Shown piece by piece: positions 1-61,321 of a stretch of 64,000 nucleotides of DNA (positions are counted from its first letter, which is position 1; every line of letters begins with the position of its first letter). Below the pieces are notes generated by a model. That model had not been told where the DNA came from. It was given only the letters and a program-made list of their open reading frames with translations, and searched no databases. Both the position numbers and the translations under genes were made by a program. Source of the DNA: Hormiphora californensis (Eukaryota > Animalia > Ctenophora). The stretch lies in contig CM035354.1 of the NCBI GenBank assembly GCA_020137815.1, positions 4,154,001 to 4,218,000 on the forward strand, read 5' to 3'.

Positions 1-1989
1 ATTTACCGACTAACCTGAGTTTCTTGGTGATCATCCTTCTAATGAACATTATCATGCATCGAGCACTAGTTTCCTACTTTGTCGCCCAACTCAAGACAAG
101 TCCATGTCATGCTGACTTCCCTCGTGACTGGGTTTGTGTACCTCGCTATAAAGCACACTAGCACAAGAATGAACCCTCCTCCCTCTCCCGCTGAGGTACC
201 GGGCATGCCAATAGGAAACGGTACAACCCTAACGGACTCTCTCTACTGGATGGCTGTGGGGATGAGCAACATGGTATTCTCCAGCAACATCTACTGCTCA
301 CTAGTTCTTACAATAGGCCTTGTCCTCAGCTCTCCCATCCTCGGATTAATGTCCTGGGTTGGCTAGCGCCTGTGGCGGTTCTCACAGTCCTAATGGTGGC
401 ACCATACAACCTCACTGACTCTACAATCCAACTGTACCTCTTCCAGGGTGTGCTAAACATGGGCAGCGTGGCAGGTCCTCTTTTTCGTTCTCAACAGGGA
501 ATCATTCCTGCTGGGTGTCCTGACAACTGTTTCCTCGACCCTTATCTCCATTGCTCTCCATGTGGTAGCCGGACAGGTCACTGTGATCGGGGCCCTAGGG
601 ATGCTATCTAGTCCTAATTCCCGTGCCACATGTTCGGTAGCTACTATTCCACGTGTCATCCCAGTAGGATTTGGTATCCATGACGACCCCGGAGGAACAC
701 TGCAGGAGGTACAGGCTGTCTAAACACGTGCTGGGACAACTAAAGGGTGAACGGGTCTGGTTACTGAAACAGAGATCTGAAGTGTTTAGCAAGATCGAAG
801 AATCACTACTCCCTGCGCTAATGTGTTCCCTGGCGGGTCAGAATGATATGGATCGGTTGAGGAGGCTGCTGGAGTTTGGTGCTAACCCGGACACCCCTGA
901 TTATGGGGGCAGGAGCCCTATACACGTGGCAGCTAGTGAGGGAAACAAGGAGGCTGTGTACGTGTTGCTGAGATACAGAGCTGATATCAACAGGTTGGAT
1001 AATGGGTGTCATACCTGCCCTGACAGCGGCCCTAGTCTCACCGTCACTTTGATCTAGCTCTCTACCTTCACAGAAAGGGTGGTAAGGTTCTCCTTCCTTC
1101 AACAGAACCTGGCCACCACTCTGTGCGAGATGGCATCCAAGGGGGACACCACAGCACTGCAAATGTGGATAGGACTGCGGGGTTAGTCCGTCTAGTGTGG
1201 CTGATTACGGGGCACGGACTCCGCTGGAGTACGCTGCTAACGATGCGACAAGAGCAGTCCTTGCACGGCGGTGTGTTCGACTCCAGGGTATTCATAGAAA
1301 ATCACATCGCCCTCGATTTGGATAAACCTGTTCCCCGGTTCACCAGGATTAGAGCGTGGCCTACCCCAAACGTGGATTCTGTGGTAGTTGGGGGAGGTGT
1401 TAAACAGCGAACAAAACCCCTTCCTAGCTGCCCCACTCGTGTGTCTCCTTATGTTGCTAGGCGACGGAGAGATGCTGCGAGAGTATTTCAGACTACACTC
1501 CACCAGCCTCCACACGTTACGAGACTTATGACTGGTCGGACTCCTCTTCACATGGCGTGTAGCACGGGAAACATAGCTGCTGTCCGGTTACTGCTTTGGA
1601 ACAAGGTGGATATCAACTGCCATGGACAGGTTTGGGTCAACTCCCCTTACTTGAGGCATGCCGGAGCAAGCACGAGAAGGTAGCGAGGTATCTGGTGCGG
1701 CGGGGTGGTACTCTCCCCACCAAATACACCCCGGACCTCTACTGGGCGGTGTGGGACAGTGAGTATGAAGATGGTGACGAGACTGGTGGAGTGTGGGGCA
1801 GATCCAGGGAGGGTTGACTACGCGGGACGGAGTCCACTGGACATTGCTAAACCGGCCATGCGGGAACACATCGAGGGGCTGGTGAGCGAGGGAGGGGGAG
1901 GAGGGGGAGGGAGGAATGCAGCACCATCACCAGAGAACACCAGCATTCAAGTCCGATCATCGCTAAGAAGAGGACGTCCAGCACGATAA
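1..1989 (+). CDS. Divergent urea transporter (UT/SLC14 fold) fused to C-terminal ankyrin repeats; 5'-partial, several frameshifts
   Basis: Stitched frames read ...AVGMSNMVFSSNIYCSLVLTIGLVLSSPILGLMSWVG...FVLNRESFLLGVLTTVSSTLISIAL...IPRVIPV-LVSMTTPEEHCRRY. This is colinear with the UT C-terminal half (GVGQ..DNPWTGGIFL.AILLSSPL..; ..VTYPEENR). ORF 671-1057 runs from that motif straight into DYGGRSPIHVAASEGNKEAVYVLL; later ANK motifs are GRTPLHMACSTGN, TPLLEACRSKH and DYAGRSPLDIA. The 3' end is approximate. Confidence 0.75.
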
Positions 1990-2839
1990 CCCTGACGGTG
2001 CACAATGATAACCAAATTAGAGCGTGCGATGGAGAGGATATGGGGAGTCATGTCTAACTGAGGGGAGGGTGAGAGAGAGATAGGGGTATTACTTCTCTCT
2101 GTTAGTATCCACGATCCAGTGGGGAGTATCATGTCAGTATGTCTAACGAGAATCTCGTATCCAGTGGAGACTGGAGAGTATGAGATTACCCGATACAGTA
2201 CATCACAGCGCCAGCAAAACGAGAATCATCCAAAGTCAACAAGAACTCTCAATCTTCCAACAAGAATTCTCAACTAGCCATGGGAGTAATCCCAAGTATT
2301 CGATACCCAAACTAAAGTGGGATGGATTTAAGATATAAATCGAGGCGAAAACAGTCATTCAGAATTTATTTGTTTGTGTCTGTATTTCACATGTTTATAA
2401 TTGTTTACCCGGTTTTTTATTCAAAACAGGGAACCAAATTGTAGTTTCTTTATCTCGTGTATAACTCGGCTAAACACTTTTGGCCGTATGTCAAGCAATC
2501 ACTAACTCTATAGAACATGAGAACGTCATGAAACAAAACCGGTTTCTCTACAATCGGGGGGGGGGGGGGTGAGAATCGGTGTCTCGTGTGAGAGGAATAG
2601 ATAAGAAGAAGAAGAAGACTTTCCAAGCGGGGATGTGGGCATTGCATATAATACGTATATTCCTCCATGAACCCATCCAATATACATACTGCTTTCTACA
2701 ACCATCACCTACTCATAACACTTCAAAAAGTTCAAATCAGTAATCACCATGCCATTGTTACCAAGTGTAACTAAGTGTTGCCAGTGTTACCAAATGTTAC
2801 TATGGTATCCATCAGTATAACCACCCATACATAACATAC

Positions 2840-3284
2840 CATTCCAAGGTTAGCCTTCTCTGCAGCCAGCATGAGAGGAGTCCAGTCCGCCTGTTTAAGG
2901 GCGTCCACAGCGGCACCATGTTCTAGTAACCATTGAACCATCTTGTTCTGGCCGTGCTGGGCAGCCTCGTGAAGAGCTCTCTTTCCGGTCTTATTGGCAT
3001 GCTCCATGTAGCCTCCTGGGATGATGGGGGGACTATAACATAGTGCTTTGTCTCTGTCTCTCACCAACTCTCTCTATCTTGCTCTCTCTCCCCTCCCTCT
3101 ACATCCCTTCCTCTACCTCTCTCTATCTCTATAGCCTATATATCTCTCTATCTCTCTTACCTCCGAATTTATGAAGTAGCACCTCCGCTACATTGGTGTG
3201 TCCGTTCTTGGCTGCAATTATCAGGAGTGTATCTCTGTTCTTGTTACAGCATGAAATACATCCTTCACCATTAGACAGGGATTC
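2840..3284 (-). CDS. ANKRD16: ANKRD16-like ankyrin repeat protein (two internal exons, 3284-3161 and 3015-2840; terminal exons not resolved)
   Basis: DTLLIIAAKNGHTNVAEVL and GKRALHEAAQHG...GAAVDALKQADWTPLMLAA match the ANKRD16-type KRPLHEAA..VDCLKKADWTPLMMA signature. Canonical ag/gt boundaries. Confidence 0.7.
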
Positions 3285-5205
3285 CTGAATGTTAACATGG
3301 TTACCATTGTTACCGTTGTTACCGTGGTAATATATCATGGACTATGGTCTCTTGTGGTTGTCCAATTTAGCTGATCTTGGTCACATTGGAAAGCTAATCG
3401 ATAGCCAAACATAATTGGTTAAATTTTGAACCGGAAAATATTTTTTCCTGGAATGAATGACAATGTTCATTCCGATCAAAAAAATGAATTTTGAGCTAGA
3501 GGTCTGAAATTTTGGTCAAGTTATTTATTTGTCTCATAGAGTTACTGAACCAAATTTTAGCGCTCCACGATATCTGGAACTATGGTAGACTTGGGGTGGG
3601 CATTTTTATTGCCCCACACGGTAGTTACCTTTAGGCACATGGCCCGGCCCTTGGTAGCGAGGGTGATAAGCCCGCTTGTTCGACAACCACAGCCTTGGAC
3701 CATCCTGGGTTCCAAGGGATCGTAGGGCGAATGCAGCTACAATAAATCACTGAACCTGGGAGTTGGGAAGCATTTAGAGATTAGTATAGAACTCTCGCCT
3801 TCTTTGGGATTGGTTTGGGTTTGGGTTGGTTGGTCCTTGATGAATCCGTGGCCCCTCGACACCTTGACACCCTTACCACCATTCTTCACAGTGATGGAAT
3901 TCTCCTCCTACCCAATGCGGCTCGAGTGAAAACAAGTGACAACGTCAGAGTTATTTGGGAGGAGAGCATGAAACCATCTTTGTGCTTGCCAGCGCAATAT
4001 TGCTATGATAGTTTTCGGTGGGTAAATAGATTATTATTGATTATTAATTTGCTAAAAAACTCAAAAAAATTGGGGTGAGTTCACCCCTAGTGGAATCAAT
4101 TATACCCCTGGTACCTATATCATCCGGGACCTTTTGGGGAGCACACTTGCATATCTGCAGAGGTGGCTCAACAGTAGCCAAGTTAACTCTGAGTTGCATA
4201 GCATATTCGCATCGACACATCTCACTTCCCAGGAGAGACCATGGACTACTGTATGAGGGAGATCAGTGACCTACCCTCCGACAATGATTGATTGCAGCAG
4301 ATTTTATATCGGATATTTGAATAAGAAACAAACATTGTGTTTTAATTAAAATCGTATTTTCAAGACAAGTGGCCCTGTGATAGGGTTATTTAGGTGATAG
4401 GTATGTAAAATTTCACCGTTGCGCTTGCCAGCGTGCTATGAGCTGATGATTGGTAACTAAAGGAAAGTGGAACCGCTAAGTGAGAGATAATAATAATTGA
4501 TGCTTTGCAGGGGTTTATAAGACCACCCCTACCGGATATAATACTTGGCTAAGGTACCATCCGGGAACTTTATGGAAACGTATGAAACGTGTTTAATTGC
4601 TCTCTTGTTGCATTGTGCTTCGTTTCACGTTCTCAGACGCCAGAATGGGATGTTTTCCTCATTAAAATGCGGCTCAGCTCAGGTCTGTCTCTAGTTCTCC
4701 CAGAATCCTAATTTTCAAGGGAGTTCGTACGGAGGGTTCCAGGCTATACCGTCTATACCCGGGTGGTATGAGACTTGGTACGCTTTAGCTTAATGCCCCC
4801 GAATCCCGACGTCCCGTTTTTATTTTCCCGGCGGTTAAAATTCCCACGACCCCTCACGTCTGCGCGCGCCGAGTTTGGCTACCAGACGCAAAGCGCGTTA
4901 CGTTTGTCAAACTCACCAAAGTGTGACAGAGAGAGGGCCTGGTCTTGTCTCACAATTCTAGGTTTCCCGTGTGGCGGTGTCTATGAAATAAGATGCGGTG
5001 TGAGCCACACAATAGCTGCTGCAGTAGTTCTCTCACCAGTATCTATCACACAATACACCGGACATAATGCTAGTGGAGAGGGTGTGTCAGTACTGGGATA
5101 ATTGGATAACTGGGTCAAGTTAAAATGGGGGGGGGGGGAATAAAACAGCGCTTTGTTAAAACAGGTTGTCAGTATAATAAATTAGTTAAAACCAAGTTAA
5201 AAGTA

Positions 5206-8200
5206 TCACTCCAGGCCAGATGCAGTAAAGATACACTCCATAGCGCCCTGCAACTTCATATACTGCTCCTGGGCTTTGACCTCCCACTGCAGACGCCTCC
5301 TAAGTCTCTCAAAGAGGTTGTCAATAGCAGGAGACATGCCAATTACAGATGAATATAGATCTGAGTGGGGTTGAGGGGGGGGGGTGTTAGTGAGGTCAGT
5401 AGTCCATAACCATTATACATTACAGGACAGGTCTTATATCACCAATGTCCTAACTTTTAGCCTGGTGTGTACACATATTCCAACTGAAATACTACTTGTG
5501 TAGCTCATACTGCATTTCATATAGTCAGACCAATATAAATTACCTGCCAGTATGTGTGCTACATCCACCAGTACAGTACAGTGTTTAGGATCCGTTACAT
5601 TCCGTACAATAAAACTCAGAATGGGAGCCAGAGTCTCCTCGTTCCGTCCCGATAGTACACTTTTCATGGCGTCACGTCGGAACAACTCCTGAAGAACACT
5701 AACCACCACCTCCGCATTCTGTCGTGTCTGGGGAGAGGGTGGGTTATACAAAAAGTCCATACTTGAGGCTTACCTAATGGGTGCGTTAATTAGCGCTAGT
5801 GATGTATAAGCAGGAAGGGGGTATGTTAGAATGGTATAATGTACCTCAAGGACGCTATCAAGAGCCTCTGTGTATTGAAACTTTTTCAAGTGCTGATCGT
5901 ATTTTGATAACTTCTGTCTCTTCGCACCTGAATCCGCTATACTGTCTTTCTGAAATGGGAAATAAATAGTCAGTCTCAAAACAACTAATTGGTAAGCATT
6001 ACTGTCATAATTAATGTTGAATTGATCCTCAGCTCTTACCGGTCCTGGAGCAATATTCTTCCCTCTAGCAAAGTATGCGAATGATCCTGGTTTTATTGCA
6101 GACACGGGACGTTTCACAGCATCCTCTTTACCCACTGGACTCTCTCTGACATTTAGTACCCCATCACTACACCCAACAACGAGGTGGCTGTTGCTCGTCT
6201 GGAGATATATGGAGTTAAAAATGAGAGGAGATAGAGGAACACTTCGTTTACAAAATGTTGATGGAAAGCGAGAGAGAGTAGAGCACGGCGAGGCCTGAGG
6301 GATTGGGGATTCTACTGGGACTGGGGGACGGGTGCATGCAGTCGAGCAAGAGCAGGGAGAGTGTGTGGAAGGATAGTGTTTAGGGGGAGGGGATAGGATT
6401 GTGGATTCTAGTGGGGTACAGCAGCACAAGAGGAGTGGTACTCACCGTAGTCCCCACGGATAGAACAGGTGCTGCGTACTTGATGGAATGTGTAACTTTG
6501 TATGTTGATAAATCATACATCTTAACTTGACTGAGAGATAGATCATAAAGTTATATAATGATTATCCCTTCTTTATATCGGAATAATAGAAGGCTCGAGC
6601 CGAATCGAACCCCTTTTTTGGTTCTTGAGACGACAGGAGGCTCTTAAAGCCGTTAACAATCGCCCAAAACTCACTGATCTAGAGACCCGGATAGTAGTCT
6701 AGTACCAGTGCCATCCAAACTGATACAAGATACAGTTTTCTGATGGTTGGAGAGGACGGCCAGGGGACCTCCACTAGATCTGTGAACATCCCAAACCTTT
6801 ATCCTGTGGGAGAATAGAGTTATAACTAGCATGTGTATTAACCTGCATTACACTAGTAACCTGAGCTATTATGTTCCAACTGGGATCAAGTTAATAACCT
6901 GCATTATGCTAGTAATAAGCAAATTAAGCTAAGATGTATACAGTCGGACCACATTTACCGGAACCCGATTTACCGGGATCTCACTGTATTCCAATGTCGT
7001 GATTTACCTGTTACCCCCACAACTGATGGCCATTGAACCCGATGGAAGAAGGAGGCAACCCTCAACGGGTGCACCGTGGTCAAGTGTGGCTGCTACCTCT
7101 CCACTCCTCTTATCCCACAGTTTTACTGTGTGATCGTAGCTTCCTGGGGAGAAGGATACTAGTTATTAGAGATGGTACGGGGGGAAGGGAGACTAGAGAT
7201 AGTGAGGGGTACTGAGGAGGCCGGAGGGTGCACTAGACTAGAGATGGTACAAGGTATAGTCTAGTTATTAAAGAAGATCTCTGATCTACTAATTATTAAC
7301 TCACCCGTTAGCCAGGAGTCAGGTTGTGATGGTGAAGTTGAAGCACACCTCACATAATCCTCATGTCCCCTCATACACAGCACCTCCGCAGCTGTTGAAA
7401 GATCCCAGCACCTCACCGTCTTGTCGTCCGAACCCGTCAAAACATGGATATTACTCTCGTCAAATCTATAGTGGGGAATCAAGTGGTTACTAGTGGGGTT
7501 ACTAGAGAGGTTACTAGGGAGGTTACTAGTGGGGTCATCTTATTGGTCATCTAGTCTCTAGACCAAAAAGTTTTCACACAAAAGACTTCCCTCTCCCAAC
7601 CGATGGCTGCACTGTGTGAGTAAAGATACAACTTAGTATGAATACAAAAAAACAATATTTACCTGGTGACGTGAACGGCCCGAGCGTGACCAGCAAACTG
7701 CCTGAGGATAGACCTTGTTCCAACTTCAAACACCTGCGCAGGGGGATAACAATAAACACAATATACTACTGAGATGGTGTCGTGTATGGTCAGACAATCT
7801 ACTCATCCCCTCTCATTCTCTTTCTCTCTCATGAGAAATGGTTCAATCAAACTGATCAAAAAGATAGTACTTGATATAATACTCTTTTTCTCCCCAAGGC
7901 CAACGGCCACGGTAGTTTCCACAAGGGGACGTCTATACTCCCCCTCCTTTAGAACTGGCGCTGAGAGAAAGATTCTTCTTTCTCTCACCGCCAGTTCTCA
8001 AGGAGGGGGAGTATATTACTCGACAATCACCTGTACAGAGTTATCCTCAGAGCCAGCTACCAGCAGCTTTCCATCTCTCCTAACAAATCCCGAGTAGGCA
8101 GTCTTCTTGAACCTACTGACTGTCTGTACTACATCACCTTTCCTCGCACTGTAGACTGTCACCTGAGTGAGTGGGTTCAATCAATAGTTACACTTCCTTG

Positions 8201-9869: not shown

Positions 9870-11878
9870 TTACAAGGCCAGGGTGTGCCTTTGGACGCAA
9901 TTATCTGCCCCACAAGTCACAAAAACCCCGTCCTCTCGAATACCTAGTCCCTCGACTGATCCCTGGTGAATTCTCTCCGAGTATACTACATGTCCTACCT
10001 CCGCAAACACCCGTTGCGATTCCTCCGCAAGCGTTCCTGAACTCTCTCCTTCACTGACCCGCCAAACAATTACATATCCACCAGAACTTGTACACACAAC
10101 AAACAACTCTGAATTCCTTCTTGATAAACCCAATGTAGGTGAGGGTTGATGCGCCAATAACGTTGCTAGGCAACGCCATTCTTACCAAAACACTCCCAAC
10201 CTTCCGTTCCTCTCTCAACCACTCACGAATAACAGCTGTATTGTCATCAGAGCAAGTTACAATCAAGCGATTTACCCTCCCAGGTGCACCATGCGACCGC
10301 TGTCACAGCTAGTAGAGTGATCATCTCTTATCACAGGCAACCTGCTTCCTTCGTTTCCAGATCTGTAATCAGGACTGTTTGGTCCTCGGAGGATGTAGCG
10401 ATAAGGTTATCATCTCGTCCTGGTGAAAATGCAATTGACCATATTTCCGCTCTGATGTGGAGGGAACCAAATCGAGGATTAGTACAGGTCGGATCAGGGT
10501 GGTGTACTAACAAGGTGAAGCTGTGGACTGGATAAGGTTCGGAAAGAGTGAACACCTCAACCTCACCAGACACAACACCGGCACACAGTAGTCCATTGTG
10601 CACTTCAATACAGGTCACCGTATCTTTAGCATTCATAACACAGTCAGTATCCATGGTAACCAGGTTAGCTTGGTATAACGATCCGGTGAGGGTACCAAAG
10701 AAGGCTCTGGAAAGGCTTTCAAACCGGACACATCGCACAGAATCAGGGACTACAGCAACTATAAGAGGGGTGACACTGGGTGGTTTCCATAGCAACAGAT
10801 TTCCACTCATGTCCCCGGATAGAATTGTATCACCATAGATATCCACACCCGCACAGGACACAGAGTGGTGTTGAAGGGTCAGGAGAGGGGTCTCATTCTC
10901 ATATCTACATATCCCATCCACTGTAACAGCCCAGAGTGTGTGTTCCCTGGTTGCTAGGTAACAAGAGAACGCCCCTGGACCAGGGAAACTCCGTACAGTT
11001 GCCCCGGTAACAACATCAAGGATTATCATGGTTGAGGAGTTTTTCTGAAGGACCACGTGGTTTGGACCAGAGAACACCATAGCCCAAATTGGGATACTCG
11101 AAACGGTTTTGTGGTGAGCGATCTGGGTGAGTGATCCTGAGTCAAGGACCACAATGTCACGTGACTTGGTGGATAGGACAGTATATGTGCTGTTGAGAGC
11201 GCACCCCATTGACATTTCCGAAGTGATATCCCATCTCCCGACCTCTCTCAGAACGCCGTGTTTTTCAATCGGTGGTTGGAGTTTGAGGAGCGAAAACTCG
11301 GGCTCACACCACCTCCATGCAAGGAACTCTCGATCCCCGCCTTTTACGGTGGAAGCTGTATCTCCACCTATACCGGTGGAATTTCCACCAAGATTTCCTC
11401 CTGTTGGACAAACTGCGACTTGGTATATCCTGTCCACGGTTGAAGCTATCATTTCAGCTGAATCGTTGTGTAAGTGATACACCGCCAAACAGCTAGGATC
11501 AAACTCCCTCTTGCCTCGACCAAGGACCACTAACGTCGTATTATCGATGAATTTAGCGAGGGCTAAGGGTGCAGAGGGACAGGTAAAAGTTAGTTTTACG
11601 GTCCATTGAGCATCATAAACAGCGACAAGACCGGACCAGTCACCGCTCACCAGTAGGGACCCATCTGGAGAACAGCTTAGGAATGTTATAATGCTGCGAT
11701 GGTGGGGTGTCACATGATCGACATGTGATCCGTCCGGTGCCCAAGTCCTGATGGATCTAGAAAAAGGAACAGAGAGGGATGATGATGATGAGTGAAGGAC
11801 GGCGCCTGTTGTTACCGTGTGAACACCAAACACCTCACTCTCCAGAGACATACATGGAGCCGATATGTTATTCTCCAT
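9870..11878 (-). CDS. Intronless WD40 beta-propeller protein; frameshifts near 10335, 10285 and 10110
   Basis: 515-aa ORF with WD motifs (SPDGSLLVSGDWSG, ILSGDMSGNLLLW, IWSIAFSP..LIATSSEDQTV). It continues in other frames (LIVTCSDDNTAVI; HQGSVEGL..FVTCGADNCV) to a stop at 9870. Confidence 0.8.
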
Positions 11879-12296
11879 ACTTTGATAGTATCAAGCGACT
11901 TGTCTGAGCAGTGGATGGAATCCTCAAAAAGCGACTTGTCACTGAAGCTCCTCACATATTACACTGATCCTCATGAAGAAAACATCCTGGTGGCAGACAG
12001 CAAGTATAATATCAACAGACGACAGTGATGTTGTGTGTTTGTATTAGATCGCGTTTAGAAAAACAACACAATATGATCTTGTTAACTACACAAAATATTT
12101 TTTAGAACAAATAACATAATAATGAGTTCACACTTAGTATACAAACTGAACAAAACCCCATCCCTATTCACACTGATAAAGCCATACATGTTCAATCAAA
12201 GGGGAACTCAAATGATAAATCTCTCCGCTTTGCCTCAACAAGACTCCATAATCAATACGTCACACTATAGATGTAGTAGATCTAGTAAAGAAAATG

Positions 12297-17547: not shown

Positions 17548-18843
17548 TCAAGTGTTTGTTAATAACTTTGCAATATCACAGTAACTTTGAGCGGATGGGG
17601 AAGAGGACAAGTTCTGTAAAAGTTCACCTTTGTCCAACGCCCGAGACAAGTTAGGATCAATGGGAATGGAGCCGAGATAGTTAATGTTACAGTGATCAGC
17701 CAGCTTCTTTCCACCACCCTGACCAAACAGGAGACCACAATCGGAACAGTTCGGACAGACGAACCCACTCATTGTTTCTATGATACCAAGAACATTAGCA
17801 TTGGTCTTCTTGCAGAATGTAACCTGTCGTAGCACATCCGCAGCAGCAACAGCCTGAAATACAATATGTTTACATGTTTTTTACTGGGAAGATTTATTTT
17901 AGGTGTACTTAAAAGGCAAGGAATTCAATACAGACATAAAAACCGTACACACTAGGGACCCCACACAGCATCTGCTGCAGCTAAGGGGCCCTTAAAACTT
18001 GATAGAAGGCTAGTAAATTACTGCAAACGCCTCGTATGTATCACAGATGATAAATACAACATAGAATTACAAGATCAAGTTTTTAACGGACTCCTTTGCT
18101 CTGTTGCTAGTACCTGTGGTGACGTTACCAGGACAACAGAACACCCTGGAATGCACTCCATAATTGTCATATGTTCATCAGAGGTTCCAGGAGGGGTGTC
18201 AATTAACAGGTAATCAAGTTCTCCCCAACACACATCACTCAAGAACTGTTTTATCATTGCTGTTTTCTTGGGACCACGCCAAATAACCGGGTCATCCTGG
18301 TTTTCAACAAGGTAGGAGAGAGATACAGCGGAGATACGGCCCTTGCCCAGAGGAGCACTAAGTGGTAACCATCCCTGTGCGCAGGAGTGTATTGAACCCT
18401 ATTGGAAGGAGTTTTGATATTAAATATTAAATAAAATGAAATATCATCCATTATAACACGAGGATTGTGTGTCCGATCATTCATGGTACTACCGGGGGTG
18501 GGGTACCTTAAGTCCGATCATTTTCGAAAGAGATGGCCCGCACAAGTCTGCATCTAGGACTCCGACAGAGTGACCCTGCGATGCAAGTACTCCAGCGAGT
18601 ACTGTGACAGTCGTGCTCTTCCCAACACCTCCCTTACCTAGAGAACGGTCAAAGAATCAGGCAAACTGCAAAGCAAGGGCTCCCGGATCAGCGTAAAACG
18701 GCATTTTATTTCTATAGTTAATTTCCTAAATCAAAATTGAGTTGAAATTTTTTCAAAACATTAAGTTTATTACCTGAAAGAACAGCTACAACTCGGTTTA
18801 CACCTCCAATACCTGCTGATGGGGTTTCGACCGAAGTTGCCAT
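17548..18843 (-). CDS. NUBP2: Cytosolic Fe-S cluster assembly factor NUBP2/Cfd1, 4 exons, 263 aa
   Basis: Exons 18843-18774, 18637-18507, 18398-18114, 17853-17548. [49 protein letters not shown]. It lacks the N-terminal Cys cluster of NUBP1. Confidence 0.95.
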
Positions 18844-21972: not shown

Positions 21973-23004
21973 TTACTTCTTGTCATTAGCCGTCATTCCA
22001 GAAGTAGACAGTATTCCCCCTGCAGGTACATACTGCCTACTACCGGGTAACACCAACCCCCACAAAACCCTCGTTGTGACCCACGATACAACCCAAACTT
22101 ACCAAGTAGTCTGCACTGAACCTCGTTACTCCAATCTCCATCGTCTTGACAGATTATCACAGCATCTTCACCGATCAGTACATGTCTGTGTTTGCAGGTA
22201 ATGGTGATGCTGGTCCCAGGTTCCTTTGCCGTCCAGTTTCCATCAATCGATCCTTCAACAGTGAACGCAGAACACTCTGGGGAAGATGTTTAGTATGATT
22301 AGCCGGAATAAAACAGCTTTAAAATGATGAAATACCTTTTGGTGTTGCACTGTTATTATAGTAGTCAGATGCTGTGTCCATCTTGTAAAACTCGATCTTC
22401 TCCACAATATCACCACCCCACTTTGTAACACAGTTGTTATCTGAACTATCTGCGAACGGATAGTTTAGCACCTCCACATTGTTACATGTGATTCTGAGGG
22501 CAGTCTCTGTTTTTGTAATCGTCCATATCTTATCCACCTCTTCCTCCGGGGGCTGTACTGGCAGGACTTTGTAGTAATTCTGGCAATACACCATCCTATA
22601 CTCTATTGGGGTGGAGAAGAAGATATACAAAGCTCTGTATTCGCCGTTATTGTCGTACATCATCACAACAATAAAGTCATAACTTCCCGAAATAGTGTCC
22701 GTCTTTATCTGTAGAGGTGTTCCCTCTAAGTCCCAGTCGATCTTTTTTTCCCTCTCTACAGCTTCCCAGCCTGAAGGACTGAAGGTTACTTTCAAGTTAT
22801 CAATAATGTGACCGCTTTTTGATAAACTTATTAGTGGTCTGGATGATTCCTTGCTCCCGAATTAATAACTCTATTATGTATGTGTATTCAATTTAAATGT
22901 GCTATCAACTGGTAATTTTAAAGTTTTCTATAAAGTTATAACGAACCTGTTCCAGTGGCTGGTTGCCAAAAGGCCGTAAGGAAAATTATCAGAATTATTC
23001 GCAT
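21973..23004 (-). CDS. Secreted protein: signal peptide + about 145-aa unnamed beta-rich domain + Sushi/CCP domain (exons 23004-22947, 22770-22336, 22276-22103, 22019-21973)
   Basis: Signal peptide MRIILIIFLTAFWQPATG. All introns phase 1. Exon 3 reads ECSAFTVEG..PGTSITITCKHRHVLIGEDAVIICQDDGDWSNEVQC (Sushi C..C..G...C..G.W..C). Confidence 0.85.
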
Positions 23005-23624: not shown

Positions 23625-26600
23625 ATGGCTGGCGATGCAACATCAGTGTTTCTACTGATGATCAATGGACAAGTTGAGAGTGCCCAGTTCCCCCTATATG
23701 ATGATCTGTACTGTAGAATGACGGTGGTTTACGGTGCTGACTGGCTTCTCGTGTCAGGTACACAAATTCACTGAATTTCTGTCCTTTCCAAGATTTGGTA
23801 CAGAAATCAGCAGTATCTCTTCTTTGTCGGTTTTTCTTCGCAGGGCTGTAAATTATGATTTTATTTTCTCATTAGGTCTGGAGGAAGGAACGTCTCAGAT
23901 CACGAAGAAAACGAAGGATGAACATCAGAAATTTGTTTGGAACTTTCCCATTGAGGTAAAAAAGCACACAGAATTGGCTATTTCATCAAAATGTAAAATC
24001 CACGATAAAAGTTTGCAAAAATATCCGCGTCGAGCAGGGTTCGAACCTACGCGGGCAGTGCCCATCAGATTTCAAGTCTGACGCCTTAACCACTCGGCCA
24101 TCGACGCGCTGAATTTCGAGCAATTCACGGTAATATAATTCAGAGAGTTGCCACAAACTGCACACTATTTCATGTGGCGTGTTATTCTTTACTATATCTC
24201 ATGATGCGCCTCCCTCAATAGGTCACACTGAAGAGCACTAATCTGCATGGCTGGCCACGTTTAGTTATTTCCGTGTATGGACTTGACAGTTTTGGACGAG
24301 ATGTCGTGAGAGGATATGGGTGTGCCTTATTTCCTCTTACTAGTGGACATCACTCTATTAAGGTATGTACATGAGTTATGAAAACTTTATGTAAGATTTT
24401 AATCGTTATTTTTTCCCTGCCTGATGTTTTTAGCACACACGTGCTAGAAAGATCATTCAGGGTTTAGAAATCAGCAGATTGTGTAGTTAGCTAAAAGTGT
24501 CTGTCCATCGTTACACATACTAACAAAGTCTGCTCCTCCATAAATCTTTCAACTCACACTTTGTTGATGCAACAAAGGAATCGATTAACACGCATTGTGG
24601 CACGCAATTACTCGCTCGTATCACTTCCTAAATACGGGTCAATTTGAAAAACTTTTTAATAGCTAAAGTTTTAGTTTGAACGATTCTCTAGTGATATGTG
24701 GTGGTTTCAGTATTTCAAGTGCTCAAATCTAGCCGGAATATGCCTCCAAACGCGTCACAGGTCACTAATGGGTTAAGGGTACACCTGGCGTTTTTCATCA
24801 TCGAGTGCCCAACCAAATGACTTCACCAGGGTTTATGCCATACAAAATGGACCTCAAATATGCAATTTTAGCCCTAAAGTCGAATTCATATTTTTGTTAC
24901 AGCCTATTTTCAAAGTGGCGTTTTTTCAATTTTTATCGAAATTGTTTACCTCAGGACCACTTTTTTGAGATAGAAACATTAAATTATTGGAATTTGAAGA
25001 AAATATAAAGGAAAATAAGCCCAAAGAAGAATTTTTGAAATGGAGCTTATTTCTGGCCATGAGAACGGTTTACTTTTTTGCGTCTTTGACACGCTGGCTG
25101 AGAATGTTCCCATGCTTCATTAGAGATGAAAATCTGGAAATAGTTGCTAAAATTGCATATTTGAGGTCCATTTTGTATGGCCTAAACCCTGGTGAAGTCA
25201 TTTGGTTGAGCACTCGATGATGAAAAACGCCAGGTGTACCCTTAAACCTTCCAAACGTGTTGAAACTGAGATGCTATATATTAGGATTGAAGGGGTATAA
25301 TCCCCGATAAACGGGATATCCCAGATATCCCGGTTATCTAAAAAATGCCAAATATCTGGGCTACCTAATGTTTTGAATATGATCCGTTTGGTTTACTAAA
25401 ACTAATTAGAAAGTCCGTCAAAAGAAAAATGTAGGACAGAGGATTTGAATCCTAGCTGGTAACCAAGGAAAAGTATTTCATTTGAAACATAAACTGTAAA
25501 ACACGGCGGGAGTAGTTTAACATTGCAAGAAACAAAAAGAAACTATTATTATAAGAATACAACATGGTAGAGGACCTCTCAAATACACACACGTATATTA
25601 TCTACTAGCTGTCTTCCAGCTGAAGTTATTCATTGTTTTCGTTAGTACCATGATCGGCGGAAGACATGTCTTTGACTTTACTTTCAAAGTACTCCATCAT
25701 CTTGGTCAACACGTTGCTGTACAAGATGGGATTCAGAACCGAGTTGAGGGGTAGGATGTTGAGGGAGAAGATCTGGTACCACGGTGACATGTCCAAAACC
25801 TCGGTCGTGTGGAGGGCACAGCAGATCAGGAAGGGCATCCAGCAGCAGAAATCAGTGATGCAGATCAGAGAGACCTTGCGGCTTAGCGAGTTGGATCTTT
25901 GGGTACCTTGGACATGTGACCTCTCGGTAAGAATACCAATCGCTACATGGCATATAGCGACACACACGAAGCACAGGAAGTGAAAGAAAAGATAACCCCA
26001 AACGTAAACCACCTGGGGATCATCCGGGAGAACGAATGCCTTGAACATGCACACTGGGTCATTACCGTAAAAGGACAGCTTCTTACCTCTTACTGGATCA
26101 TAATCCTGGGAAAACATTTCAGAGATCATATCTTGGAATGTCCTCCAGGATATATCATTACCAGAAACACCATGTCTGGTTTCATAGCTACCATGGTAAC
26201 TCCGCAGAATCTTTAGCAACCGACTTTTGTCCATCACCCCAAGAAACAGGCCAATATCTCTTTCAAATACCAGTCCGTTAACAAACCAATCATCAAACGG
26301 TTCAAGTAACGGGAAAACAGACACTGTTAGAGATACCACAGTGACTGCTGCGAGAAGGGATCCCAACTTAACCTTCAAATCCCTCGTTACCTCATCTGAT
26401 CGGCGGTATCGAAGGGCCATGACAGTACTACGGAGCCGGAAACAGCTTATCAAAGCCATTGCAAGGGACGAGATGGTAGACCCGGTACTATTCAAAACCC
26501 CAATCACTGTGCACGGTATTCCGCTGATCCAAGCGATTTGCTCTTCACAGAAATTGGATCCATGAAACCAGTGGGATGTTGTGATAGTAAGAAGGTATAT

Positions 26601-33681: not shown

Positions 33682-34107
33682 GTATACTTGGTAATTGCAG
33701 GACGGGCCACGATAAACCTGGAAGTAGAATTGGTTGGGATTGGTTGGAATTTATTGTTATTTGTTTTTTGCTGGGTCGAGCAACGCAAGTATTCATTTGC
33801 TGATGTGATCTGATAGGGAACCTAAGATCTCGAGAGAGGCTGTCAAAACCTTCACACCATGCCGAATTTGGAAGTTTATTGTAATCCAAAGTTCCAGATG
33901 AATACTCAAAAGCCGAAACCTAGATTTGTCAGAAGAGAGAAAGAGATCCCATAAACTTTTATTAATCTGACTTAGATTTCCCCACGCCAATCTCAGAATG
34001 CACTCACCCGTATTTCCATATTTGTCATGGTAGCTGCCCGCAAGGAGGAAAATAACAATAACAGAAATAAAAATGACAATTTTAACCGCCGAGAATCCAG
34101 TGAAAGC
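33682..34107. repeat. Direct repeat A, copy 1 (copy 2 at about 35667-36033)
   Basis: GTATACTTGGTAATTGCAGGA...ACCGCCGAGAA.CC.GTGAAAGC recurs with substitutions and indels. Confidence 0.85.
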
Positions 34108-35667
34108 AAGGTGGCCACGGATTGTTGGTCATGGTTAGCGAGGTGGTGCGTCAAAACGGTGATAGTTGTGAGAATAAAAATTATGGGAGCACTCTGGATC
34201 AATTCCTTGGTAACTTTTTCCATAATTTTTTGTCAAAAATTCGAAAATTCATTTTTCATTCCTTCATTCATTTCTCGTTCATTCATGATGTGAGCATCCT
34301 AATTTTCCATCATTATGCTATTTTTCTTTGGCTTGAATTTATCTTTCCAATGAGCACCATGAAAATGAAATTGAAGCACCAGGTCACTCAGCAGTTGAGA
34401 AAATGTTCATGCATGATTTTGGCTCTTTTTGCGACTTTCAAACAGATGTATCACGGCTATCTTTCGTTTAATCTTCTTAAAACTTTGGGAAAACATTGGA
34501 TAAGCAAAGATCTTTGCTCACAAGAAAAATCAAGGCCAAAGATCAAAGTTCATTTTTCATTTTTGTTAGTTCATTCCGTTCATTCAGGAACCAACGTCCC
34601 TAAAGTGATGAAAAGGTTTGGGTTTTGTTTGGCCCATGTCCTGCAATGACAGAGAGGTGTAATAGCGTGTTTCCGGGCTAGTTTGTGGGTGTCCATGTGA
34701 TCATGATGATATCTGACACCTTTTCTGAGCCATAATTAAGGTATTTTCTCAAATTCAAGCATGTAACTTGGTTTTTCTGCGATTAGTACCGTGCAGCAAT
34801 GTTATGAGATCTCTAACACCTCAAATGATGATTAGCTCAATGAAATGAGTTGATTTATGATTGAAAAGATTAAAACCGATGTCAAATTGAACGAAACGAA
34901 CAATTACATCATAAATCAACTCATTTCATTGAGCTAATCATTATTTTTGAGGTGTTATGAGATCTCCTAACATTACTGCACGGTACTAATCGCAGAAAAA
35001 CCAAGTTACATGCTTGAATTTGAGAAAATCCCTTAATTATGGCTCAGAAAAGGTGTCAGATATCATCATGATCACATGGACACCCACAAACTAGCCCGGA
35101 AACACGCTATTACACCTCTCTGTCATTGCAGGACATGGGCCAAACAAAACCCAAACCTTTTCATCACTTTAGGGATGTTGGTTCCTGAATGAACGGAATG
35201 AACTAACAAAAATGAAAAATGAACTTTGATCTTTGGCCTTGATTTTTCTTGTGAGCAAAGATCTTTGCTTATCCAATGTTTTCCCAAAGTTTTAAGAAGA
35301 TTGAACGAAAGGTAGCCGTGATACAGCTGTTTGAAAGTCGCAAAAAGAGCCAAAATCATGCATGAACATTTTCTAAACTGCTGAGTGACCTGGTGCTTCA
35401 ATGTCATTTTCATGGTGCTCATTGGAAAGATAAATTCAAGCCAAAGAAAAATAGCATAATGATGGAAAATTAGGATGCTCACATCATGAATGAACGAGAA
35501 ATGAATGATGGAATGAAAAATGAATTTTCGAATTTTTGACAAAAAATTATGGAAAAAGTTACCAAGGAATTGATCCAGAGTGCTCCCATAATTTTTATTC
35601 TCACAACTATCACCGTTTTGACGCACCACCTCGCTAACCATGACCAACAATCCGTGGCCCACCTTGT
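34108..35667. mobile_element. Long foldback (about 750-bp inverted arms, about 46-bp spacer at 34862-34907)
   Basis: CAAGGTGGCCACGGATTGTTGG ... CCAACAATCCGTGGCCCACCTTG. The mirror ORFs 34122-34649(+) and 35123-35662(-) are nearly identical. Confidence 0.9.
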
Positions 35668-36033
35668 ATACTTGGTAATTGCAGGATGGGCCACGATAAA
35701 CCTGCAGTGAAGTTGGTTGTTGATGGCGATTTGATCTGATAGGGAACCTAAGATCTCGAGAGGGAGGCTTTCAAATCCTTCACACCATGCCGAATTTGGA
35801 AGTCTATTGTAATCCAAAGTTCCAGATGAATACTCGAAATCTGAAACCTAGATTTGTCAGAAGAGAGGAAGAGATGCCATAAACTTTTATTATTCTGATT
35901 TAGTTTTCCCCACGCCAATCTCAGAACACTCACCCGTATTTCCATATTTGTCACGGTAGCTGCCCGCAAGGAGGAAAATAACAATAACAGAAATAAAGAT
36001 GACAAGTTTAACCGCCGAGAAACCGGTGAAAGC
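35667..36033. repeat. Direct repeat A, copy 2
   Basis: Same orientation as 33682-34107. Confidence 0.85.
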
Positions 36034-53319: not shown

Positions 53320-54434
53320 AATAATGTTTTTAAAAATTTTTGGGTTTTAAAAGGGGGCCGGGGGCCCAAAAACATATGATCGATTATGCATAGGGCCCCT
53401 TTTCTAACAAACCCAAATTGGAAACCAGAAGTTCATGTTAACAACAGATTTTGGGAAAAAAAAAAAACCCCTGCCAATTCAAATACTTAAAATTTTAAAT
53501 AGTATAACTTTTGGAAAAGGGGGGCAAAAATTTTAAAAAAAATAAAAATAAAATAAAAAAAACTGGTCCAAAAAAAGGTTTTTTTTAAAAACCCCTTTTT
53601 TTTTTCCCCCCGGGGAAAAGGCACGGGGGCAAAAAAAAACGTTTTTCCCAAAATGGGGGCCCAAACCTTGGTAACCGACTAAGGGGAAAAAAAGTAACAA
53701 AAAAATAAAATTTTCCCCCATGGGGGTTTTAAGGTTTAAAAAAATTAATTCAAAATTTTTCCCCAAAAGTTTAACTAATTTTTTTTTCCCCGGGCAAACA
53801 AGGGGCCACCCCCCCCAAAAAAATAAAAGAAATTTAAAAAATTTTCCCTAACAAAAAGATTTTTTCAATTTCTAGTTACACTTTTTTTTTTTTTTAAAAA
53901 AACCCCTCCAAACCCCTTAAAAACCCCCAAAAAGGGGGGGAAAAACCCCCCAAAAAAAAACGAAGCAGATCTCCCTAATTTTTTCGTTAAATTTTTTCTT
54001 TTCCTAAAATTTTCTCCCCTTTGAAAATTTTTTTTTTTTCCCTTTTTATCTTTTGGGGGGAAAAAATTTTTTATCCCCCCACCCCAAAAAAACCCCCAAT
54101 AAATTTTCCCCCAAAATCTTTCTCCCAAAACCCCTTCGAGTTTTTTGTCCCCCCTTTTGCAGACCAACAAACCTTTTTTTCCTTCTTTTTTCCCCTTAAA
54201 ACCCCTTTTTCCCAAACCCCGAATCTTGAAATGGCCCGGGGGGAAAACCAGTGACAAAAAACGTTCGATTTTTTTTAAAAAGGGGGGTTTTTGCGACCCC
54301 CCCGGAAAAAAACCCCTCCCTTTTTTTTAACCATTTAATTAACCTCCGGGCCTTTTGTTTTTCACCTCCCCCGGTGAATTTTCCCAAAACCCCCCCAAAT
54401 CCTTTAAAAACCGCCCGAAACACCCTACCCCCCC

Positions 54435-54486
<52 letters not shown>

Positions 54487-57400
54487 TTAAAAAATTTTTT
54501 TTTTTTTTTTTTTTTTTAAAAAAACCCCCATTTTTTTTTTTTTTTTTTTTTTTTCTTCTTTTATTTGTCACCCCCCCCCCCATCATGTGAACCCCCAGAC
54601 AAATTTTCCCCCCCCCAGAAAAAGGGGAGGGGGGGCGGGGGTAAACCCCGGGAATTAAAACTGGGGTAGTTGAGATAACCTTTTAAAAATCCGTTAAATT
54701 TTTTAAAAACGAAAGCCAAAAACCCCCCTCCCTTTTTCATGCAACTGTTCCCCCCTCCCACTGAAAAGAAAATAAGAAAATTTTTAATGGGAAATTTTTT
54801 AAAGGGCAAATTAAGAAAAAACCCAAAAACAGGGTGGGAAAACGTCCCATTAGAAAAAAAAAGGGGGGGGGGGGGGGGGGGGAAAAAAAGGGGGGGGTGG
54901 GGGGGGGGGGGGGTTTTTTTTCCTTCCTTTTTTCCCCCCCCCTTTTTTTTTTTTTCCCCGGGTCTCCCTCCCCCCCTTCCAAAAAATTTTTTTTTTTTTA
55001 AAAAAAAAAAAAAGAGGAGAAAGAGAAAGGGGAAAAAAAATTTTGGGTTTTTTTTCCCCCCCCTTTTTTCTTGGGTTCCCCCCTAGGTCTTTCTTGTTTT
55101 GGGGCCGGGGCCCCTTTTTTTCCCCCCCTTTCCTTTTCCCCGCCCAAAATTTTTTCCCCCCGGGGGAAAACAAGAAAAAGCCGGGCGGGGCCAAAAAAAG
55201 GGCCCCCTTTTTAACTTTTCAAATTTTGGTTTTTTTTTGTGGGCCCTTTTAAGGGTTTTGGCTTTTTTCCCCTTTTGTTTTGAGTTTTTTTTGGAAAAAG
55301 GTTTTTTTTTGGCCGAGAGGGGGGGCGAAGGAGGGGGGAAGAGGGTTGGAAAAGGATTTTTGGGGGGGGGGGGGGAAAAAAAAAAAAAATAAGGGGGGGT
55401 GGGGCAGGGGTTTTAAAAGGGGGCCTCGGTTTTATCTCTTACTTCTTTAAAACCCCCAAAAAAAAAAACCCCCCCAAAAAAACTTTTCCCCCTTGATTTA
55501 AATTAGGGGGGAGGAAAGGAATATTGGAAAAAAGCAGAGAGAGTGAAGGGGAGGGGAGAAAGGAGAAGAGAGAGAGGAAGGAGGGAGTTTTGAGAGCGGC
55601 GGGGGATTTTTTCCCGAGCGGCGCGAGGAAGCCGCCCTTTTTGGGGCCCCTTTTCCCCCTTCCCCCCCGGTTTTTGGGGGGCCCCCGCCTGTTGGGGAGG
55701 GGAAGAGAGACCCGAAAAGAAAAGGGGAAAACTGCAATTTAAAGGGAAAAGGCCCCAAAAAAAAAACTATGACTGTCAAAAGGGGCCCCCTGTGAAAGAG
55801 GCCCTGCAGCTGCCGAGGTCCTAAAGATAAAATGGAAAGGGCTTCCTTTGGGGGCCCCCGGGCCCTCTGAGCGCACTGAGAAACAAATTTGGGGATTGGG
55901 GCCCCCCATCAGGGGAAAGGGGGGATAGACTGAAGGGGGGGACCAAAAAACCCGGGCAAGGGGTTAGCCGAGAAACAGGGGATTAAAAAAGATAGAAAAC
56001 CCTTTACCTTAAAGTTGTATCCTTAATTTTTTGCATTTTTCTGGGCGTACCTGAAAAAAAAATGGGGGTTTGGGGGGGCTATAATGGTTCCCCCTCGGGA
56101 GTTGTGCCCCGGTATGTACAAAAAGGGGGTTAACCCGGTTGTGGTAAGGGCACCTGAAAAATGATAGATATTCCGGGCCGGAAAAAAAAATTTTTAAGCG
56201 GGTCAGGATAACTGAAGGCCTCAGATTTAAAAGGGCCAAAACCTATCCTAACCCCCCAACCCAAATACAAAAAAATGCCCAAAACCCAAAAAAAATACCC
56301 CTAAAAAAAACTGCGATCGACAAACCCCAAATTTTTTAAATCCCAAACTGCCCCCAACCCCCCAGACTTTCCCCGCGATGAAACCCAGGACAGGGGAAAG
56401 GGCCCCTTTAAATCAACACGCTTTCCCGTGACCCCCGGGCCCCCCAAAAACAAAACCACCACACCCACACCAGAAGGCTTTGGGACAAAACCAGGGAAAA
56501 AGGGGGAGATAAAGGGACTAAATAAAACTATAAAGTAGAATCCCAACCGGGTGGTGAAATATAATAAAAATCCATAAATAAAACTAAATAATTTTAAACC
56601 AAATGACAAAACATAAGAAAAACCTTTTTAAAAAAAACTGAAAAATGGGTGTTTGCAACAACAAAAAATTTTTTTCTTTTATCATTTTTTTAAAAAAAAA
56701 ACCACTTTTCAAAAGGGGGAGGGCCCGAAACCCCAACACCCCCCTTAAAACCTTTTTAATGGTTCTCTCTCAAATTAAACAAAACAAAAAAAAGGGGAAA
56801 CCCCAAAATTCCTGCGAAACAAAAAACAAAAAAACTCACCCTCAGCCCAAACCAAAAAATTAAAACCAATTCTACCAGCACAAACAAAAACCCCCTTCTG
56901 CACCTCGAGTGGAGGTCCGTTCTCTCCCCAAGGCCCCTTTTGGGTGTGGGGAAAAACTTAACCCTGAAATCGAGGGAAAGGGCCCCGCCCCTCTGTTCAG
57001 CAGGTGGGCGAAAAAACCCCCATAAAATCCCCTTTATATTTCTCCACCTACACCTTTTTTTTTCACCCCCTCAACAAGAAAAAAAACCCCTACGGACAGG
57101 GATGCCTTCGTCAGTCATTTTCCAAAAAGCCCCAAATTTTAGGTTTGTATTTGTTGCAAAACTAGATGCCGATTTCCATCACACATACACAACGTATAAT
57201 AAACCCATATAATAAACTCATTCTGTGAACTCTGCATATGTATCTGAGATTGGGACAATTATAATTGTCCCAATATTTGGAACTAGAACTATCAAAAAAA
57301 AGGGCCACGGGTTACCCCCCCCCTCCCACGGGTTACCAAAAGGGAAATGCCCAATTTTTTATTCATGTCTATCTGGGACCCTTAAATAAAACTTTAATTC

Positions 57401-57650
57401 ATAAAATATCTTGATAAATAGCAAACGTGGCTTCATCCAATCGTGTTGGGGTTCTTTTTGAAAAGGGAGGTGTATGAAAGGGGAAAAAAAAAAGAGAGGG
57501 GGCCAGAAAGAGGGGGAAAAAGGGAAAAAGGGGGGGAAGCGGGAGAGTCCCTGGTCCGGTTTGGAGGGGGGGCCCGGGGGGCCCCCCTGGGGGTAAAAAT
57601 GGGGAGCGAAGGGGGGGAAAAGACAATTGGGACGGAATAAACTATGGGGG
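53320..57650. other. Homopolymer-dominated segment, probably low-quality read consensus
   Basis: Dense alternating A/T/G/C runs; ORFs are only F/K/G/P-rich; fairly abrupt borders with normal sequence. Confidence 0.8.
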
Positions 57651-58878
57651 CTTTTCTCGCGTTATTTGGATCGCTACATGGTTATGCTTGTCTACCACAG
57701 AGATAACTCTCTCTACTCTTTACGCGATCACCATAACTTGTAATTTCATTGCTTAGTTTCCAATACTGCAGGGTTGTACTGATATGTCGACCCGATCTGA
57801 GCGTACTCTGTCAAAACGGGCGCCACCATACAGTGCACTATGGCAAATCCTGCAAAGTAGGAGTAACTTTTCTACCAACACTCAACCACTAACCATCTGC
57901 AGCAATCCTTATACTTTATAGGAATAATCACTTTCACTTCTCTGTGGCCATCTCTGTGGCCCTGTCTCTCTCTCTTTCTGCCTATCAGTCTCGCTCACTG
58001 ACTGCCTCCTCCTCTCTTTCACCCTCTCTGTCTCGCTGTCTTAGTGTCTTTCTCGCCCTTGACCTTTTTCACTCACTCATGGCAGCTCAATTCTCTTTTT
58101 CTGTGTTCTCTTACTACCTGTTGCGTGACCAGAGAGAAAATGAGAGACTCTCTACAATCTTATCTTTCTCCCTAGCTTACTTTCATTTCTGTCACACTTG
58201 TCAAAGATTGCTCGCCAAGCTTTGCCAATAATAAAATCTATACAATTTGATTGGCAGTAGATTCGATCGCTGAGTGTTCAGGGTTTAATCCCCTCTTATC
58301 TTATACAGTATCCACTGTGTATAAGAATTATAGATTTATAGTTCTCCATCCCACCATATCTCGGGATTATCATTATCTGACTATATAATGCGACAAGGGG
58401 GCCCAAACCTGATCCACTGCAACGACCGACCTGAAATCGTCGTCACGGATAAAATCACATCCCAAAATATTGCTAAGTAACTCTCTTGATCTTTTTCTCG
58501 CTTTTTCTAGAGATATATGGGATCACATTGTATCCAAGTCTCTCACTCTCTCTCGGCCCGGTTCAAATATTGATATGATTGATATCATCAGTTATTCCCC
58601 TCCCCCTCTCTACATTATGCATATATCATTTGACCACTATCATCACTCTATTGTCAATTGTGTGTGTGTGTGTGTGTCTGTGTGAGAGGGTTACCCTGTG
58701 ATGAAGATTAAGCCGACTGTAATGAAGAAAACTCATTTTATTTATTGGTACTCAAGATATATTGACCCCCTCTTTCCTTTTCTCTCTCCCTTTCTGACTA
58801 TCTATGTCTCAGACCTCGGTCTCTCCCTCTATCTCGCTCTATCTCTCTCTATCTCTCTCTCTCTCCTTCCCTCTCTGA

Positions 58879-60123: not shown

Positions 60124-61321
60124 ATGGAGCCGCTGTTAGGAGGGAACTACACAGGCGCAACCATCCACCAGATTTTTGAGGGACAGTTGATGGTTCGAAT
60201 ACCGGCCGCTGTCGTCATCTCCCTCATCCTGATTGAAGGTAAATTATCGTTAATTAATATCATCATTGAATAGTCGGACTATTTTAAAAACTCAATGTCT
60301 ATCTTATAGATCTCTTTGAAGCCACCAGCCCAGTTTATTAACTGTTAACACTATTCTCGACCCTCGGCATCTCTCACCACACCTGCACCCCGAGTTAGAA
60401 TGTAACATTGCAACTAACACCCTTATCCCGCAGGAATTCTAGGTAACGGATTTGTAATCCACGCCACCTTCAAAGCCCGGGTTTTCAAAGTGGACCGGAG
60501 TACAGTTGTGTTTATCCGACATTTAGCCATCTCAGATGTGCTCTACATCGTCCTCAATGTCCCTCCCTTCCTGGCCTACCTGCTCTCCCTCCCTAGCGAG
60601 GCGAACACGGCCATCCTACAGCGGGCCTGTCACATTATGGGCAACATACACGGTGCAATGGTCCACTGCAACGTGGCCTTCATCCTAGCCATATCCATTA
60701 ACCGGTTCCTGAGGTGCCTGAAACCCATGCAGCTTTCCGTGATGAACCCGACCCAGGCAGCGTGGTGTCTAACTGGTTTCTGGTGTCTTGCCATCACCCC
60801 CTCACTGGTTAAAGTGGCCCTCCAAATTGGGGATATTCTCCCCATGTACACCTTTAACTCAACCCTCCTCCGATGTGAGATGCCAGATGCAAACAGGGCC
60901 TGGGAGACTTACCACACCATCACCGCATCCACGGCCTTCTCCCTCATCCTATTGTGCAACATTGGCCTTCTTCTCCTGACCCTCTCACGTAACTCTCAAA
61001 TGTTAACAAAGAGAATGCGGAAGGTTAAACTCCAATCATTCCTGATAACCGGAGGGTTAACGACAATATTCTTGTTGTCATGGTTACCCCTCATCACGGA
61101 GAATCTTATGGATTGGATGGGAGCGGTGGTACCCGATGCACTTCGTTATCTCAGCCCACCTGTACATTGTCAATACCTTTAGTAACCCCATTCTGTATGT
61201 GTTTATCAGTGCGGGGTACTACCAGTTCCTGCAGTTCAAGTTAAAGTTGCTGAAGATCAAGCTGGAGGAGAGAGTGGAGGACATACCCGTTATGATGAGG
61301 GACCTTAGGGAGAGATGGTGA
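60124..61321 (+). CDS. Class-A GPCR, 2 coding exons (60124-60238, 60434-61321); one frameshift near 61155
   Basis: GILGNGFVI (TM1), HLAISD (TM2), AISINRFLRCLKP (TM3), FLLSWLP (TM6), NTFSNPILY (TM7). Confidence 0.9.

Follow-up and report, generated by a model that had tools for sequence, protein, structure and literature searches.

The first 2 kb of a 64,000-nucleotide stretch of Hormiphora californensis DNA (GenBank assembly GCA_020137815.1, contig CM035354.1, positions 4,154,001 to 4,218,000; hereafter the window) is coding sequence that the assembly splits into many short frames. Here we show that these frameshifts are assembly errors within one intact, selected animal gene, and that the gene fuses a membrane domain of the urea transporter (UT) family to a double block of ankyrin repeats. 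A preliminary description of the DNA had proposed that both parts belong to one gene, and a single repaired frame, Pfam matches to UT and ankyrin families and the pattern of silent changes bear this out. As far as alignments can place it, the canonical T-x-P-F filter is not intact in either repeat of the membrane domain, with threonines that reach the pore sites in some registers and not in others. By its predicted protein, we class the gene with the UT family and with a published group of UT–ankyrin proteins, and keep it apart from the canonical SLC14 urea channels.

Table 1 Features of the window (positions count from its first base; aa, residues of the read-through translation)
Feature	Position	Strand	Basis
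Extra single bases (16), assembly insertion errors	105, 363, 371, 476, 597, 625, 639, 666, 1014/1016, 1034, 1096, 1171, 1527, 1533, 1618, 1768		Short-read contigs
Inferred breaks (3)	near 1262, 1389, 1650		Frame repair
UT-family membrane domain, C-terminal two-thirds (aa 1–230)	3–700	+	Pfam UT; profile of eight UTs; bovine UT-B and dvUT alignments by eye; 24 of 26 changes silent
Repeat-a pore-signature site, no intact T-x-P-F	96–117	+	Thr site at Met36 (109) or Thr32 (96, profile)
Repeat-b pore-signature site, no intact T-x-[PS]-F	580–604	+	Four alignments, Gly195–Gly198; one gapped MAFFT alignment, Thr192
Linker after TPEEH, predicted helical (low confidence)	701–775	+	13/38 identity to UT-EF-hand proteins; models with pLDDT 41–68 there
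Ankyrin block 1 (roughly four repeats plus the beginning of a fifth; DY-x-x-R-[TS]-P motif at 899 and again at 1203)	776–1242	+	Pfam Ank; local matches
Inter-block linker of about 50 codons with two inferred breaks	1243–1390	+	Silent changes at 1332 and 1362 back the frame
Ankyrin block 2 (motif at 1523 and again at 1816), sharing 32% identity with block 1	1391–1855	+	Pfam Ank; block alignment
Gly-rich low-complexity tail; stop at 1987–1989, 2055–2057 or earlier	1856–1989	+	
UTP15, intron-split	5200–7540	-	
WD40 protein	10334–11890	-	
NUBP-type NTPase, intron-split	17551–18398	-	
tRNA	24026–24107	-	
7tm_1 (rhodopsin-family) receptor	60418–61179	+	

A single frame under purifying selection

Short-read contigs from two studies omit single bases of the window sequence at no fewer than 16 places among the indels listed. 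The contigs came from runs X2, X5, X7 and X11 for positions 1–3600 and from X2, X4 and X5 for 1–1060, X2 and X4 being one sample; the listings cover 12 of 90 indels in the longer comparison and 12 of 19 in the shorter one. Removing the bases in Table 1 yields one open frame of 436 codons from base 3, and random sets of eight one-base deletions opened 3–1010 in only 16 of 20,000 draws. With the three inferred breaks added, of which those near 1262 and 1650 are demanded by contig gap counts in the 1–3600 comparison, a single frame of about 655 codons results, with no intron required over the 2 kb. Overlapping short-read contigs tile 12–1060, and each of two haplotype contigs spanning 513–697 has four gaps. 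At the 5′ end, 13 unaligned letters ahead of base 4 in an X5 contig extend the open frame, so the gene starts upstream of the window. Its stop is uncertain because only one of the three gaps in an X2 contig across 1659–2008 could be placed. The errors are concentrated at the start of the window, given that X2's listed contigs have fewer gaps past 2250 and that the neighbouring UTP15 exons have, by eye, no evident shifts. Farther along, at about 53500–57700, the assembly contains homopolymer-rich, garbled sequence that resembles raw long-read noise.

Purifying selection acts on this gene. Among the 53 substitutions listed, 51 are silent in the repaired frame (all 27 ankyrin-part changes and 24 of the 26 UT-part changes), against a chance expectation of 16.1 ± 3.3 and a maximum of 28 when the same changes were put at random places in 5,000 trials. 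The count comprises 40 of the 47 substitutions listed on 1–1060 and 13 more within 3–1990; 15 duplicates and 12 entries beyond 1990 were excluded, and 243 further entries fall outside the count. So high a silent fraction rules out a decayed copy and places the UT and ankyrin parts in one frame. A pseudogene, or two separate genes that merely look fused, would accommodate the roughly 19 frameshifts in the window sequence and the lack of any one short-read contig across the entire gene, and a gene that is intron-free unlike its neighbours could suggest a processed copy. However, the short-read contigs of two studies lack the indels, as do both haplotype contigs across 513–697, the tiling of 12–1060 is continuous, and changes are overwhelmingly silent on both sides of the junction; we consider this explanation very improbable.

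A search of the rest of the window found no second copy of the gene. UTP15, the WD40 protein, the NUBP-type NTPase, the receptor and the tRNA are ordinary neighbouring genes, and nothing evident links them to the UT–ankyrin gene. The intron-split neighbours (UTP15 and NUBP type), together with the rhodopsin-family receptor, show that the host is an animal. Gene transfer as an origin is supported by no test; its hints are the lack of introns and a GC content of 0.53 against 0.43 for the window (0.49 for another long ORF). Downstream, a separate intron-split ankyrin gene (Pfam Ank) on the minus strand at 2774–3341 converges on the UT gene, and its comparison with the UT-gene tail gave no significant match at E ≤ 0.01. 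An X7 contig (organism B) connects position 3021 with position 992 through 75 intervening letters, and in this contig a copy, about 90% identical, of part of ankyrin block 1 (992–1141) seems to lie beside an exon of the neighbouring gene (2921–3021). Elsewhere, 34104–34646 (plus strand) and 35126–35770 (minus strand) have near-identical translations on opposite strands, which suggests an inverted duplication within 33.5–36 kb. A 180-aa ORF on the minus strand at 22322–22861 has no Pfam family and no clear ESM Atlas match; it resembles a domain expanded in ctenophores, and some other ORFs and the intron repeats probably resemble ctenophore sequence as well.

The membrane domain and its pore signature

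In a Pfam scan of ten pieces from 1–1989, one piece matched UT and four matched ankyrin families (two above the cut-off). The UT match (PF03253) lies in a piece of 98 aa at 70–363 and is narrow (25.3 bits, with the cut-off at 25; E 1e-5; model positions 121–201 of 292); all four PDB matches for that piece at E ≤ 10 are urea transporters (E 1–7). A profile of eight reference UTs, of which five come from named bacterial plasmids and three are UT-EF-hand proteins, aligns with aa 18–238 at E 7e-15, and aa 1–235 score 38.8 bits against at most 11.0 in shuffles (970 reported of 1,000). The Pfam and profile matches together uphold the UT fold that had been proposed for 1–700, and on this evidence we assign the membrane domain to the UT family, with a predicted UT fold. 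In order, it comprises the last two helices of repeat a, a long outer loop, the whole of repeat b and a terminal TPEEH; the first part of repeat a falls ahead of base 1. The pieces at 372–476 and 478–594 had no PDB match at E ≤ 10 and no Pfam family, BLASTP of 106–363 against the UT-EF-hand protein P0154 was not significant, and an ESM Atlas search with the UT piece gave no usable match. Comparison of the UT pieces with plasmids by tblastn gave no matches or chance matches, and PF03253 exceeded its cut-off in none of three sets of 2, 199 and 5 genomes or records and in 1 of a further 3, where the match was the seed UT.

Many family features are retained. The pore helix of repeat b (259–279) keeps its Phe, and F146 and L150, which by eye correspond to bovine UT-B F283 and L287, are kept, with Gln at the bovine N284 position and L-F-Q in place of the repeat-b G-[FY]-N. 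The long outer loop contains an N-G-T sequon at 217; by residue number, N-x-T sequons stand at aa 72 and 135, the first of them in the same loop as the glycosylated N-V-T of bovine UT-B. The T-x-P-E-E pattern of TPEEH (686–700) also closes dvUT and bovine UT-B, and we rejected TPEEH as a mark of tailed UTs, since it is general to UTs. An 872-base contig from run X11 (RNA by guess) matches 241–294, over the repeat-b pore helix, at 47 of 54 bases and possibly comes from a related UT-like gene.

The pore signature is altered. T-x-[PS]-F is absent from aa 1–235, whereas each of the eight reference UTs has at least one copy, and all eight keep the repeat-b Thr column. For repeat a, MAFFT, an ungapped scan and the bovine alignment by eye agree on Met36 as the Thr site, with a scan score of 5.3 for that register against -13.0, and the profile instead selects Thr32 (T-S-P-V). 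For repeat b, the site is read as Gly195, as Ala196 (bovine, by eye), as Leu197 (dvUT, by eye), as Gly198 (profile) or as Thr192 (MAFFT). His185–His230 align gap-free, by eye, with bovine UT-B H323–N368, so that Ala196 falls on T334 and Gly-Cys on P336–F337. Thr32 and Thr192 each lie four residues ahead of the gap-free sites, their registers require gaps of 3–5 residues in or beside a membrane helix, and the signature Phe is gone in every register. The LPTNLSF that opens the window was rejected as the repeat-a pore motif because the alignments place it one helix earlier. Among bacterial UTs, a Burkholderia protein (L019; 1450–2340, minus strand) is missing the repeat-a motif and keeps that of repeat b, so loss of a single motif does occur, and the repeat-b Asn is absent from two annotated bacterial UTs (L022 and L023).

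The junction and the ankyrin tail

The ORF at 668–1057 (129 aa) continues after VSMTTPEEH as an ankyrin repeat (E 6e-11 for Ank_4), as the preliminary description had reported, although the accompanying claim that the junction does not depend on frameshift repair could not be sustained. Only about ten UT residues (aa 221–230) lie inside this ORF, and seven one-base errors (363, 371, 476, 597, 625, 639 and 666) separate it from the Pfam-scoring UT piece; the link between UT and ankyrin parts therefore leans on frame repair. Each of these seven repairs is backed by short-read contigs. The last 14 or so codons of the ORF, from 1014, are off-frame. From TPEEH to the first ankyrin helix there are 41 residues, and two AlphaFold models have mean pLDDT values of 49 and 45, too weak for a fold search.

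The two ankyrin blocks align over 154 aa at E 1e-17. By eye against P0023 and P0094, each has roughly four complete repeats followed by the beginning of a fifth, which agrees with the 9–10 repeats in two similar blocks first described, and a generic ankyrin profile detected only five. Block 1 was compared with 155 sequences that came mostly from one search and are biased to long ankyrin proteins. Its best local matches in this set are P0023, P0094 and P0025 (cNMP_binding and Ank; 102, 90.5 and 82 bits), and it matches an asparaginase tail (L001) at 77 bits, the median being 51. P0023, P0094 and P0025 are likened to plant Shaker channels by Pfam content only. A metagenome scan recovered seven loci, five for generic ankyrin proteins and two for animal asparaginase genes, the latter being the closest loci found to block 1 (45% over 60 residues); a genome scan gave one chance match. 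By these scores, and within a biased comparison set, the subtype of block 1 appears closest to that of channel-like proteins with a cNMP-binding domain and of asparaginase. Block 2 is less specific in type, with a best score of 79 bits and generic proteins reaching 73.

Possible function and relation to known systems

We propose that the protein is a tail-regulated passive small-solute channel with a pore retuned away from the urea optimum; partners that bind the tail would likely control its activity or placement. We regard this reading as evenly poised between right and wrong. The preliminary description had suggested a regulated channel or small-solute sensor; the regulated-channel idea is reasonable, and what it had missed are the erosion of the pore signature and the subtype of the ankyrin repeats. 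On family knowledge, the product would be a glycosylated plasma-membrane trimer bearing three tails on the cytoplasmic side, where the UT C-terminus lies. UTs form trimers of ten-helix subunits (PMC12171576). The predicted helix after TPEEH could couple the tail to the channel, as may be envisaged from the plant channel GORK, in which a bridge from the cyclic-nucleotide-binding domain (CNBD) to the ankyrin repeats sets the channel state (PMC12318183). The solute would be small and neutral: candidates are ammonia, water, a small amide or amine, and urea passed more slowly. Urea, water and NH3 share one pore in mammalian UTs, and a Thr-to-Val change at the second site abolishes the flux of all three (PMC12171576). 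Given this effect and the retention of the repeat-b Thr in all eight reference UTs, the pore could be shut instead of retuned.

A shut pore would suit a non-conducting scaffold or sensor, in which the UT fold has lost transport and the ankyrin tail anchors or signals. Selection on the gene is still strong; the missing T-x-[PS]-F, the L-F-Q of repeat b and the Ala196 and Gly-Cys that fall on T334 and P336–F337 of bovine UT-B all lean the same way. Against it, the rest of the pore lining and the spacing of the helices are conserved, bacterial UTs vary too (L019 in the repeat-a motif, L022 and L023 in the repeat-b Asn), and smaller side chains would be expected to widen a pore, not block it, so that we hold this explanation possible but on the unlikely side. 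Another view, of an ordinary urea channel that the tail only targets or stabilises, supposes that the pore threonines have shifted by one helical turn. Thr32 and Thr192, four residues before the gap-free sites, are each put on the conserved Thr by one method, which would fit ordinary urea transport, and the asparaginase domain of the human protein needs no ankyrin tail in order to fold and function (PMC5443537). Yet each of those registers opens gaps of 3–5 residues within or next to a membrane helix, Met36 is preferred by the ungapped scan and the signature Phe is lost in every register; we find this account doubtful. A bolder reading is improbable yet conceivable: a urea-channel fold turned, in an early-branching animal, into a non-urea channel or solute sensor, both its pore threonines lost while purifying selection stayed strong, with doubled Shaker/asparaginase-type ankyrin repeats that read or set the pore through the TPEEH helix. 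If true, this would make the protein the first transceptor with a UT fold and would mean that the UT–ankyrin fusion had arisen independently here.

The tail-regulated channel that we favour matters because UTs are treated as always-open urea pores, and a UT under selection that combines a tail of regulatory type with an altered filter would be a natural test of whether this fold can be gated or repurposed. How non-nephrozoans excrete is for the most part unknown (PMC6687202); in a ctenophore host, the gene would bear on how nitrogen waste moves in animals without excretory organs. Among the publications listed by our literature searches, we found no functional test of any UT ankyrin tail and none on a ctenophore UT.

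The preliminary description did not recognise the architecture as described, but UT and ankyrin repeats have already been reported together. A survey by Cagliani et al. (2026, PMC12998343) records ankyrin repeats in 25 of more than 1,330 UT proteins, from Rotifera, Arthropoda and Alveolata; the combination is thus published, which largely refutes the supposed novelty of the architecture, although it is confined to a minority. In that survey, added domains are mostly C-terminal, TRP-like regulation is proposed for the UT–ankyrin proteins, and the ankyrin-tailed UTs are noted and none is tested. Its 638 metazoan rows (536 vertebrate, 70 arthropod, 23 rotifer, 5 annelid, 2 tardigrade and 2 not identified) carry no Ctenophora, Porifera, Cnidaria or Placozoa label, and the Hormiphora host lineage therefore probably lies outside it. 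To the published class, the Hormiphora copy appears to add two tandem ankyrin blocks, a pore signature that appears intact in neither repeat and a host probably beyond the survey. Our own searches for eukaryotic UT–ankyrin homologues gave weak blanks: one generic ankyrin protein among 172 candidates, none among 132 in a second search, none in the best 150 of 114,498 (a list swamped by long ankyrin proteins), and, among 7,998 scored, three UT-EF-hand proteins (P0152–P0154) and no UT–ankyrin protein.

Set against known systems, the Hormiphora protein resembles the rotifer, arthropod and alveolate UT–ankyrin proteins (for example, UniProt A0A814UYH3) in carrying PF03253 and ankyrin repeats in one chain (PMC12998343). 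With vertebrate SLC14 UT-A and UT-B and bacterial dvUT and Yut it shares the helix order of repeat b, the pore-helix Phe, the equivalents of F283 and L287, the outer-loop sequon and the C-terminal T-x-P-E-E; those proteins are without an ankyrin tail and have T-x-P-F signatures, neither of which appears intact here. The UT-EF-hand proteins likewise place a regulatory-type domain 40–60 residues past the same TPEEH junction, around which 13 of 38 residues are identical, but they carry EF-hands instead of ankyrins and keep both pore threonines. In block 1, DY-x-x-R-[TS]-P-type repeats recall those of Shaker-like CNBD channels (GORK and AKT1 type) and of the animal asparaginase ASPG. No Pfam match to a voltage sensor, K+ pore or CNBD was found on the ten pieces of 1–1989, so that the ankyrin subtype alone is shared with these channels; the Hormiphora protein has no CNBD, potassium pore or asparaginase domain, and its ankyrin block is doubled.
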